From: Escherichia coli
GTDB lineage: Bacteria; Pseudomonadota; Gammaproteobacteria; Enterobacterales; Enterobacteriaceae
Reading direction: 5' to 3' (one strand)
Length of the DNA stretch: 64,000 nt
NCBI RefSeq assembly: GCF_030013205.1
Contig: NZ_CP122648.1
This document shows, one piece after another, positions 1 through 2,639 of the stretch (position 1 is its first letter; the number at the start of each line of letters is the position of its first letter). A program made the position numbers.

Positions 1-2639
1 ATCTTCCGTTAACCCAGGCGTACGCCCACCAGGGCAGTTCTTCCTGCCGGTGGAACTCAAGAATGAAATTTTGCGGAACATGAAGTATATCGGCCCGCAA
101 ATATTTAGCTGGGGTGATGACCACCGGCAGATCATTGACCTCAGTACCGCGGGAGAAGTGAAAATACATATGGTAGACAATACCATCATCACGTTGGAGC
201 GCCTGAATCCGAATCCGCAACATAACGAGTTCATGATGGTCGCCGAATGGTGCCAATGGGCTATGGAGCGGGATGGTTTGCAAGAAAACCTGCAAAAAAA
301 CCTGTACGAAATCCTGGAAGAAAACCAGCAAAACAAACAGTCAGAAATTCCCCAAGAAGACCTGAAAGAAAGTCTGGAAGAAATCAAGGAAAATATCCTG
401 GAAGAAAACCTGCCAGCAAGCCGGATTGAAACCGGGCAGAAGCATTGCGCAGAATGAAGGAATGTCTCATTACAAGACGGAGTATGCTCAATCTTAGCAA
501 CCTTGGGTTGACTTCACTCCCTGAAAATTTGCCTCCACATCTGATTGAATTTTACTGCAGTAAAAACGTGTTGACCGCGTTACCGAAGGTGATGCCAAAG
601 TGGCTGCTGGTGCTTGACTGTACAGATAACGTCTTGATCTTGTTACCGAAGGTGCAGCCCTCAAAACTGATGGTACTGAAGTGCTATGAAAACTGTATTA
701 TCTGGCTGCCTGAGCTGTCGACTAACCTGAGAGTGATTAACTGTTCTGAAAACTTCTTGCAATTTTTACCGCCGTCGATGCCCCAGTACCTGTATAAACT
801 ATCCTGTGCCGGCAACAATATTCACTCAATACCTGATGAGATGCTGGAGAACTTGACTCGCCTGAAAGTATTTGACTGTTCTAGTAACGATTTGATCTCT
901 GCACCACGGCTGCCGCCCAAACTAATAATTTACTACTGTGGAGAAAACAAGTTTAAAACGGTACAGGTGCCACAGCCCCAGAGCCTGAAGGTGTTTGACT
1001 GTAATGGTAACCCGTGGGACAAAGACAATTTACCGACGCTGTTCAAAGCCGTCGAGGGCCTGAAAAAACAGCAGGGCCTGAAGGACCTTTTGGGCTTTTT
1101 GCACAAGGAGGGCCAGATGAAGCTGGAGAAGCTGGAGAAGCTGGAGGATCTGGATGACCTTATGGATCTAGAGCTCCTGGATGACCCGGTACTCCTGGAG
1201 CGCGTGAAGGTACATGAGGACCTGGAGCTCCTGAATCAGCAGTTGGGCCTGTTGATTCTGGAAAGACAACAGGACTCGCAGCCTGTTAATCAACATTCTG
1301 AACATGAACCCGAATCTGCATCAAGGGTGAAGCGTGATTTATCTGAAGTCGAGTTCGAGTCAACAATGAAACGTAAGCGTTTTATGTAGAACGCCTGTGC
1401 GGTGAACTCAGGTTCCGGGGAAATAGTGTCCATCATTGTAATGGACACTATCATGGGAAATGGCTCTGTCACATCAACAACTACAGTTGCTGACCAGCCG
1501 GATGGATGATTTTTTCGCAACCAGAAGACGCTGCCTCCGATCCGGCTTACAACAAGTTACACTGTCACAACCGGGACACGTAACGCCAGCGCGCACATCA
1601 ACTCATAGCCCACCGTTCCGGCAGCGGCGGCGACATCATCAATTTTGATCTCCTTGCCCCACAGCTCAACCGGCGTACCAATCCCCGCCTGCGGGCAAGG
1701 CGTTAAATCAACCGCCAGCATATCCATCGAGACGGTCCCCACCGTCATGGTGCGCACGCCGTCCACTAAAACAGGAGTACCGGTAGGCGCATGGCGCGGA
1801 TAACCGTCGGCGTAGCCTGCGGCGACAATGCCGATTCGCTGTTCATCGCGCGCAGTATAGCGACCGCCGTAGCCCACACGCTCGCCCGCTTTTAGCGTCT
1901 GGACACCAATAATCTCGCTGCTTAGCGTCATCACCGGACGTAATCCGGTATTGGCGATATCACGCCACTGACCGGACGGCGAAGCGCCATACAAAATAAT
2001 GCCAGGCCGAACCCAGTCAAAATGCGCTTCCGGGTGCCACAGAGTCGCCGCCGAATTGGACAACGAACGCCGACACTCCAGCCCTTCCGCCGCCTGCTCA
2101 ATACGCGCCATCGCGCTGGAAATTCCATCAGGATGTTCCGCCTCGGCAAAATGCGACATCAGGGTCATTTCGCCAACATTCGCCATCGCCCGCAACTGCT
2201 GCCAGACGGTAAGCACGCGATCGGGCTGGAAGCCCAACCGATTCATCCCACTGTTCACTTTAAGATAAATATCCAACAGGGCTTTTAGCCGTGCATTTTG
2301 CAGTGCTTTGAGCTGCCAGTTGCTGTGTACGCAGGTGGTCAGGCGGTGCTGGTCATAAATCTCCAGATCCTGAGCATGGAAAAATCCTTCCAGCATCAGG
2401 ATCGGTCCTTTCCAGCCGCGCTCACGTAACGTTATTGCCTCTTCCAGGTTAAGTAATGCAAAGCCATCGGTGGCCCCGAGCGCGCTCCAGATACGCTCAA
2501 TACCGTGCCCGTAAGCGTTCGCTTTTACCACCGACCAGACGCGCGCGTGCGGCGCGGCCTGGCGGACAATGGACAGATTCTGTTTTAATGCCTGCAGATC
2601 GAGGCTGGCCTGTATCGGACGGGTCATCTCGTTTCCTTA

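Follow-up and report, generated by a model that had tools for sequence, protein, structure and literature searches.

A palindrome between an LRR gene and dadX

We analyzed a 64,000-nucleotide stretch of Escherichia coli DNA (contig NZ_CP122648.1; here called the window), in which a perfect palindrome at positions 1423-1451 lies between the 3' part of a leucine-rich repeat (LRR) gene and dadX. The palindrome reads ATAGTGTCCAT-CATTGTA-ATGGACACTAT, with 11-bp arms that are 100% complementary and a loop of 7 nt. It occupies a convergent intergenic region: the LRR frame stops at 1389 on the + strand, and dadX ends at 1557 on the - strand. The following features bear on its origin.

1-1389, + strand: LRR gene, 3' part, frameshifted, its LPX repeats being of the type III effector type (RefSeq, "frameshifted")
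1373-1466, + strand: probable fossil left end of an IS66-family insertion sequence (IS), comprising the terminal repeat, a leader with the palindrome, and the first tnpA bases (blastn, multiple alignment)
1373-1399, + strand: terminal inverted-repeat-like sequence GTAAGCGTTTTATGTAGAACGCCTGTG, the IS terminus (alignment to the ends of complete copies)
1423-1451, no strand assigned: palindrome, a hairpin conserved in the family (inverted-repeat search, folding, IS66 alignment)
1442-1448: conserved TGGACAC motif in the right arm of the palindrome
1455-1457, + strand: position equivalent to the tnpA start codon, GGG here, with the start lost
1557-2627, - strand: dadX, catabolic alanine racemase, a core gene

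The original prediction, which described this position, sequence, and setting correctly, held that the palindrome is not a typical intrinsic terminator. Our results agree. The stem is followed by CATGGGAAAT (CATGGG) on the + strand and by TTTCCCC on the - strand; neither strand has a T-run that would give a U-tract, and a terminator scan left the palindrome unflagged. The stem is AT-rich, with G-C pairs at 4 of its 11 positions, and its predicted RNA fold has an energy of -16.3 kcal/mol on the + strand (z -3.0) and -17.6 kcal/mol on the - strand (z -4.5).

The full 11-7-11 palindrome matches only once within the window. We compared the number of perfect inverted repeats (arms of at least 11, loops of 3-12) with first-order Markov simulations of the window sequence that kept its dinucleotide transition frequencies; 0.17 are expected, versus 5 in the window. 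Statistics alone make no compelling case for the palindrome, and from the window by itself it could still be due to chance. It is recognized as nonrandom because it is homologous to IS66 left ends, as described below. A second exact ATAGTGTCCAT at 27446, inside a cyclic di-GMP (c-di-GMP) phosphodiesterase pseudogene (a 15-mer at 27445-27459 when flanks are included), is best read as a chance match. The exact palindrome was absent from the viral contigs searched. Two small open reading frames (ORFs) that span the palindrome, one of 27 codons starting at GTG (1426-1509) and one of 76 amino acids on the - strand, were rejected as coding; strain substitutions within them run at about 2 synonymous to 4 nonsynonymous (by manual reading of the alignment), giving no sign of coding constraint.

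Homology of the palindrome to IS66-family left ends

A 57-nt probe centered on the palindrome weakly matched the 5' ends of IS66-like tnpA genes, and window positions 1371-1460 were found to be colinear with the left end of ISCro1. With blastn, the left end of a live Serratia copy (locus L014, 1-81) aligned to window positions 1373-1452 at 84% identity over 82 nt (E 6e-17). A plasmid search returned 1180 records, in which the best non-E. coli matches had 77-82% identity over query positions 5-96 (E 5e-14). The plasmid matches fall under the annotation "IS66-like element accessory protein TnpA" and belong to elements from Serratia, Pantoea, Klebsiella, Erwinia, Edwardsiella, and Raoultella.

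Multiple alignment of eight IS left ends placed the start of homology exactly at GTAAGCG, window positions 1373-1379, which carries the GTAA signature of IS66 termini; the alignment is colinear to about 1460. At the exact termini of complete copies, GTAAGCGTCTCATTTAGACCGTCTGTG aligns with GTAAGCGTTTTATGTAGAACGCCTGTG of the window. The partner elements are complete, measuring 2675-2699 bp with one shorter copy of 2456 bp, and encode TnpA, TnpB, and the IS66 DDE transposase. Target duplications of 8 bp (TCACAGAC, GGAATTAC, GTTGATAC, GAATGACC, and ATTTTATC) define their ends. The window sequence is colinear with the true left ends of transposase-encoding elements.

The palindrome itself is part of this homology. 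Its arms are identical in the Serratia, Pantoea, Klebsiella, Edwardsiella, and Raoultella elements, and in live copies it occupies IS positions ~51-80 and ends 5 nt before the tnpA start, which reads [A/G]TG AAA CAC CGG. The loop of the closest live subgroup is mostly 8-10 nt, composed of CA, 5-7 T, and A (4-7 T overall), and that of the window is 7 nt, CATTGTA; one Erwinia copy has a 7-nt loop, CATTTTA.

We conclude with high confidence that the palindrome is the leader hairpin of an IS66-family element, an inherited relic within a dead left end of ~94 bp and an ordinary IS scar. An IS66-family element once occupied this site, and its left terminus, GTAAGCG at 1373, lay within the LRR gene near the 3' end. 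A later deletion removed everything past ~1466, including tnpA, tnpB, tnpC, and the right end. What was left has been passed on by vertical inheritance in most E. coli lineages, whether or not they carry the LRR gene. The LRR frame runs 17 nt into the IS terminal repeat, and its last five codons plus the stop codon at 1387-1389 are IS sequence.

The rest of such an element was not found in the window. tblastn detected no IS66 TnpB or TnpC anywhere in it, and the sole TnpA match is the helix-turn-helix (HTH) region of IS2 OrfA at 28.7 kb; the window therefore holds no complete tnpA-tnpB-tnpC element. No right inverted repeat with an 8-bp target duplication was found either, as only GCTTAC (1545-1550) resembles a right terminus, and positions 1452-1550 have no similarity to IS bodies. 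This GCTTAC, which ends an inverted repeat at 1496-1550, could be a degenerate IS66 right terminus; comparison of IS right ends with 1496-1550 gave similarity no longer than 6 nt.

Four observations fit less comfortably with a simple left-end relic. First, its right limit is soft, since 1461-1466 can be aligned only by allowing a 9-nt deletion in the fossil, which is our own reading of the alignment. Second, 1467-1550, which we considered as remaining IS66 body or right end and rejected, did not align significantly with any of five full elements or with their last 130 nt and had no match among the plasmids. Third, the sequences that flank 1373-1550 (AATGAAAC versus AACAAGTT) differ and form no target-site duplication, and the history therefore involves more than one insertion plus an internal deletion. 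Fourth, the loop is unusually variable within E. coli. Over seven diverse strains, 3 of 7 loop positions vary, compared with 1 of 22 in the arms and about 17 of 205 at other informative positions (~8% in the flanks; Fisher P of about 0.02-0.04), and a purely neutral relic does not obviously predict this. Four loop variants occur: CATTGTA, CATTTTA, CCTTTTA, and TCTTTTA. The loop may be a mutational hotspot. We compared loop variability in loci L002, L003, L006, L007, and L010; live IS copies vary at this place too, in the length of the T-run (4-7 T).

Distribution across E. coli and structure of the locus

We surveyed 5426 complete E. coli genomes and counted the fossil as present where at least 80% of the 57-nt probe was covered. 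It was found in 4234 genomes (78%), K-12 included, whereas the whole LRR gene plus the palindrome was found in 834. Most other genomes, among them K-12 and O157, match only from ~1316 or 1274-1280 rightwards: the gene is lost, and its last 74-116 nt are kept together with the palindrome. Homology in LRR-less strains at ~1316 thus starts ~107 nt to the left of the palindrome. B2 strains (536 and ST131) lack the block through 1550, and their homology resumes exactly at 1551; a different 42-bp hairpin-containing spacer lies between cvrA and dadX in these strains. Genomes with a match have a median of one matching place for the 57-nt query, with extra places where IS66 copies occur, and near-identical palindromes are present in IS66-family elements on many plasmids and chromosomes.

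Since the fossil is much commoner than the LRR gene, the palindrome must lie off both the LRR deletion boundary and the B2 boundary. The suggestion that it marks the junction of accessory and core DNA can thus be discarded, as the palindrome is retained in strains without the LRR gene and the breakpoints fall at ~1316, 1274-1280, and 1550/1551. Of the two signs that the original prediction named against itself, presence in strains without the LRR locus was observed, whereas a lack of repeated copies elsewhere was not, given the IS66 relatives of the palindrome. What stands of that suggestion is the insertion scar beside accessory DNA, in the form of a dead IS66 end whose terminus lies at 1373 in the LRR frame.

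The same breakpoints bear on the idea that the palindrome is the core of a site-specific recombination system, or the breakpoint at which an LRR island was inserted or deleted. The locus is polymorphic, with three structural classes, and 11-bp arms around a 6- to 8-bp spacer resemble the cores used by tyrosine recombinases (dif, lox-type). However, no breakpoint falls within 1423-1451, the spacer sequence varies among strains, insertions into the loop are of the IS3 family only, no integrase is present nearby, and colinear homology to IS66 left ends accounts fully for the sequence. We regard a recombination core or island breakpoint as extremely improbable.

The LRR gene was itself examined. 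In E. coli K_EC180, which is 100% identical, the annotated order is cvrA, LRR (frameshifted pseudogene), dadX, dadA, ycgB, IS200C, and fadR. An intact allele encodes 478 amino acids (locus L005, 1454-2890). The LRR domain matches YopM, SlrP, SspH, and IpaH, and the NEL ligase domain is absent; the gene may be a truncated effector gene. All orthologues with a named source are from E. coli or Shigella. Among 100,044 species genomes, relatives were found at one locus (L012, JAIJJM010000586.1), a 2-kb contig in a "Collinsella sp." metagenome-assembled genome with 96% identity to E. coli, almost certainly a binning contamination. Outside E. coli and Shigella, the gene is essentially absent. That the present C terminus of this effector-like gene is IS encoded helps to reconstruct how the accessory locus arose and decayed.

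Two further observations were made around this gene. Shigella flexneri plasmid pWR501 (locus L018, 3001-3100) has another dead IS66 left end with an ISCro1-type palindrome, adjacent to ospG and close to ipaH9.8; fragments of IS66 ends are thus found repeatedly beside effector genes. Just 3' of cvrA, a segment of ~100 bp bounded by 13-bp inverted repeats (GCCTGAGCCTGCA and TGCAGGCTCTGGC) is inverted in K-12 (locus L010, 409-510) relative to the LRR-positive strain Yu5 (locus L005, 851-953), and the K-12 deletion that lost the LRR gene begins at the edge of this segment.

The hairpin in live IS66 elements

In five further IS66 lineages, whose TnpA proteins are 31-41% identical, a hairpin is found at the same place, immediately 5' of tnpA. 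In a 10-sequence alignment, 86% of the cells are paired, compensatory double changes occur in 5 of 11 pairs, and the covariation score was reached by none of 500 column shuffles. As a control, sliding the partner by 1-3 columns gave pairing of 25-40%. Loci L107, L144, L139, and L141 contribute further compensated or wobble-mediated changes. The core, GTCC/GGAC, is fixed, with GGAC located 8-9 nt before the start codon. At the sequence level, the alignment shows the live IS66 hairpin to be a conserved structure with a covarying outer stem and a fixed core, and in live elements it overlaps the transposase translation-initiation region. The search for TnpB homologues returned close relatives only and is a within-lineage comparison, and nearly all hits of a flank-anchored pattern in viral contigs are identical ISCro1 and Pantoea copies.

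On the strand antisense to tnpA, the hairpin often gains ~10 kcal/mol in stability. Sense and antisense fold energies are -8.6 and -16.0 kcal/mol for ISCro1, -10.7 and -20.3 for locus L054, -11.5 and -23.0 for L058, and -9.9 and -21.5 for L139. Across 17 sequences, 37 cells are non-Watson-Crick, and G.U pairs account for 20 of the 37 on the antisense strand and 5 of the 37 on the sense strand, counted as cells and not as independent events. The bias toward the antisense strand is suggestive. In complete elements, the paired motifs occur at the left end and are missing from the right-end region, with isolated single hexamers internally in some; this distribution argues for control of expression rather than transposase binding.

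In live IS66 elements, then, the hairpin would regulate expression of tnpA. The evidence leans to an RNA structure on the antisense strand, for example, the stem-loop of a cis-antisense RNA of the kind represented by RNA-OUT of IS10 or art200 of IS200. Possible alternatives are a sense-strand hairpin that masks the GGA used for ribosome binding and an operator to which the HTH protein TnpA binds. Some of our data pull away from the antisense structure. L056 and L057 fold slightly better on the sense strand, a consensus promoter scan found no promoter near the hairpin on either strand, and L066 lacks the left arm and has TGGACA as three direct repeats, a better fit to a protein-binding motif. 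A device for protection from outside transcription, or promoters driving an antisense RNA, had also been considered and was rejected on the same scan.

The original prediction also allowed for a protein-binding site, which we considered in the form of an operator. The fossil offers no support for it, and the live elements remain a candidate through the HTH domain of TnpA. TnpA or the transposase would bind the TGGACAC half-sites and autoregulate tnpA-tnpB-tnpC, and the fossil could titrate the proteins of resident IS66 copies. The GTCC/GGAC core and TGGACAC are indeed fixed while the outer stem drifts, direct repeats of TGGACAC are present in L066 and, in part, in L057 and L058, an HTH_Tnp_1 domain (Pfam) is found in short-type TnpA, and the restriction of paired motifs to the left end fits an expression operator better than a transposition site. 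Compensatory changes in 5 of 11 pairs together with G.U substitutions on one strand are, however, the signature of a folded single strand and not of a duplex site, and the spacer ranges from 0 to 15 nt across lineages, which is awkward for a dimeric binder. Moreover, the window has no IS66 genes, and no binding data were found in the accessible literature. We consider the operator unlikely.

In the closest live subgroup, the right arm also starts a 5-codon mini-ORF, ATG GAC ACT ATC GCG/GTA/GCA TGA (MDTIA or MDTIV), at ~213-230 in L013, at 3073-3092 in L014, and at the equivalent place in L020. Its stop codon overlaps the tnpA start (GTGA or ATGA), and the same coupling motif is present between tnpA and tnpB. 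RefSeq calls of the tnpA start codon differ between copies with T-run length. The mini-ORF was dropped as a mechanism because it is not conserved in other lineages.

An IS66 left end in the AfaR small RNA

AfaR, from the afa-8 adhesin cluster, is a sigma-E-dependent and Hfq-dependent small RNA (sRNA) of ~230 nt (PMC3664800). The AfaR model (RF02515) weakly matches IS66 left ends on the antisense strand, with 29-30 bits versus a gathering score of 100. The loci that show the link to AfaR are L058 736-891 (-), L139 697-783 (-), and hit H192 in the afa-8 locus. Positions 11-107 of the RF02515 consensus have 76-84% identity to the 5' regions of IS66 tnpA (blastn E down to 2e-18), and 2179 E. coli genomes match the AfaR consensus. 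The cmscan alignment contains the hairpin GUCCACUUUUU-GAUG-AAAAGGUGGAC and, after it, the terminal repeat in reverse complement. AfaR 11-107 is thus an IS66-family left end read in antisense. The AfaR paper points out that the 3' end resembles IS2; IS66 does not appear in it (PMC3664800). A fossil of this kind can therefore form part of a working sRNA. AfaR is the only precedent for an antisense-transcribed IS66 end, and in it the fossil is read from an outside promoter. For the fossil in the window, the AfaR model gave no match in 1-4300 or 1340-1560 at E values up to 10, and an Rfam scan matched no family.

Taken together, these observations raise a tentative possibility. IS66 elements may carry a control hairpin at the tnpA start that is selected on the antisense strand, as the stem of an undescribed cis-antisense RNA. 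Dead copies across E. coli, such as that between dadX and cvrA in K-12, may then serve as raw material for sRNAs, with AfaR as one domesticated example whose IS66 origin was overlooked. We found no description of IS66 regulation or of this hairpin in the accessible literature, in which two key IS66 papers (Han et al. 2001; Gourbeyre et al. 2010) are not covered. The wider lead is thus a covarying, strand-biased hairpin at the IS66 tnpA start and a virulence sRNA, AfaR, built on such an end. If true, it is relevant to self-control in a very common IS family and to how new sRNAs arise from its members. At the family level, we consider the antisense-biased hairpin and the IS66 origin of AfaR modestly interesting.

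The fossil hairpin and its neighbors in the host

In the seven-strain comparison above, the arms of the fossil are no better conserved than their surroundings, and no extra constraint was detected. The one arm variant is an A-to-G change in O157-like strains. The arms look perfect because the strains have diverged by only a few percent and not because of detectable selection. The fossil in the window most likely does nothing specific.

Two further features lie between the fossil and dadX.

1471-1494, - strand (dadX sense): second hairpin (fold; a K-12 RNA 3' end maps here)
1496-1550, no strand assigned: inverted repeat AGCCGGAT...ATCCGGCT and then TAC, directly adjacent to dadX (inverted-repeat search)

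Published RNA 3' ends from K-12 bear on a possible host role. Term-seq places a dadX-sense RNA 3' end at MG1655 position 1240020(+), the sole RNA 3' end seen 3' of dadX in two lists from the supplementary data of that study (supplement of PMC7815308). This corresponds to window position 1476, at the second hairpin and, on the dadX-sense strand, 25 nt before the palindrome. The second hairpin has a G.U pair on the dadX-sense strand only. The same supplementary data report a strong bicyclomycin-sensitive signal further on, antisense to cvrA, and the two lists contain no RNA end at the palindrome (PMC7815308). From the 3' end at 1240020 and the bicyclomycin-sensitive signal beyond it, dadAX transcription may end at a hairpin without a U-tract plus Rho.

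These data weigh on the proposal that the host has co-opted the palindrome as a transcript 3'-end element, either a U-tract-less terminator or a block to exonucleases, serving either the LRR mRNA on the + strand or read-through from dadX on the - strand. In its favor are a stem that is stable on either strand, a strong - strand fold of the entire dadX 3' region (z -3.65), a position 34 nt past the LRR stop codon, retention of the fossil in 78% of genomes, and the O157 arm variant, which still pairs as U.G on the + strand. Yet the K-12 dadX-sense end lies upstream of the palindrome, and none is given at it in the two lists. The lack of a U-tract, the silent terminator scan, and arm conservation no higher than that of the flanks likewise count against such a role, the hairpin is kept where the LRR gene is deleted or frameshifted, and in several strains the loop is interrupted by an IS3-family element. 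Co-option of this kind is very unlikely.

The IS3-family element in question is 1420 bp long, with ends TGAACTGCGCCCC...GGGGCGCAGTTCA, and sits in the loop of the chromosomal fossil in E. coli M37H (L009 3531-4950; loop at window positions 1434-1440). The same element, with its transposase gene in the opposite orientation, lies in the loop T-run of an ISCro1-like copy on an E. albertii plasmid (L055 ~560-600). The junction, searched as a 45-nt probe with at least 80% coverage, is present in 45 genomes, on both chromosomes and plasmids. This element may prefer the palindrome loop as a target. IS1397 is known to insert in the loops of repetitive extragenic palindromic (REP) elements.

For the window, these results remove a false lead, in that the palindrome in all likelihood serves neither host regulation nor recombination, and they add a small annotation: a previously unannotated IS66 end fossil between dadX and cvrA in most E. 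coli strains, including K-12.

The inverted repeat at 1496-1550 is presumably REP-like, judged against the REP consensus; a search of the window for the motif ATCCGGCYTAC found it once. In B2 strains, the position after dadX is taken by another hairpin, CGCTGGAT...ATCCAGCG, which by its appearance we also take to be REP-like. Farther away, the tnpA gene of IS200C is found at 5911-6369, between ycgB and fadR, and an IS2 copy splits the c-di-GMP phosphodiesterase gene into two pseudogene halves at ~27.4-29.1 kb.

Comparison with known systems

Like Rho-independent terminators and REP elements, the palindrome is a stable hairpin between convergent genes, and a REP-like repeat lies adjacent to it at 1496-1550. 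It differs from Rho-independent terminators in its AT-rich stem, its lack of a U-tract, and the absence of an RNA 3' end at this site in the two K-12 lists. Unlike REP elements, it is not a multicopy chromosomal repeat.

The closest relatives of the fossil are the left ends of ISCro1 and of unnamed IS66 elements on Serratia, Pantoea, Klebsiella, Raoultella, and Edwardsiella plasmids, with which it shares the GTAAGCG terminus, colinearity over ~82-94 nt, and identical palindrome arms. In contrast to these live elements, it keeps only the first ~94 bp; the genes, a recognizable right repeat, the 8-bp duplication, and the start codon are gone. Compared with AfaR, it comes from a different IS66 subgroup and has neither a sigma-E promoter nor a terminator context.

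IS10 uses the antisense RNA RNA-OUT and fold-back inhibition to control its transposase. IS200 has a stem-loop in the 5' untranslated region of tnpA plus the antisense RNA art200 (PMC4513863). The IS66 hairpin has no sequence relationship to these structures; in live elements it may work like the transposase-control structures of IS10, IS50, and IS200. It is likewise a conserved stem-loop at the start of a transposase operon near an IS end, and its strand bias suggests that, as with RNA-OUT and art200, the stem may belong to an antisense RNA.

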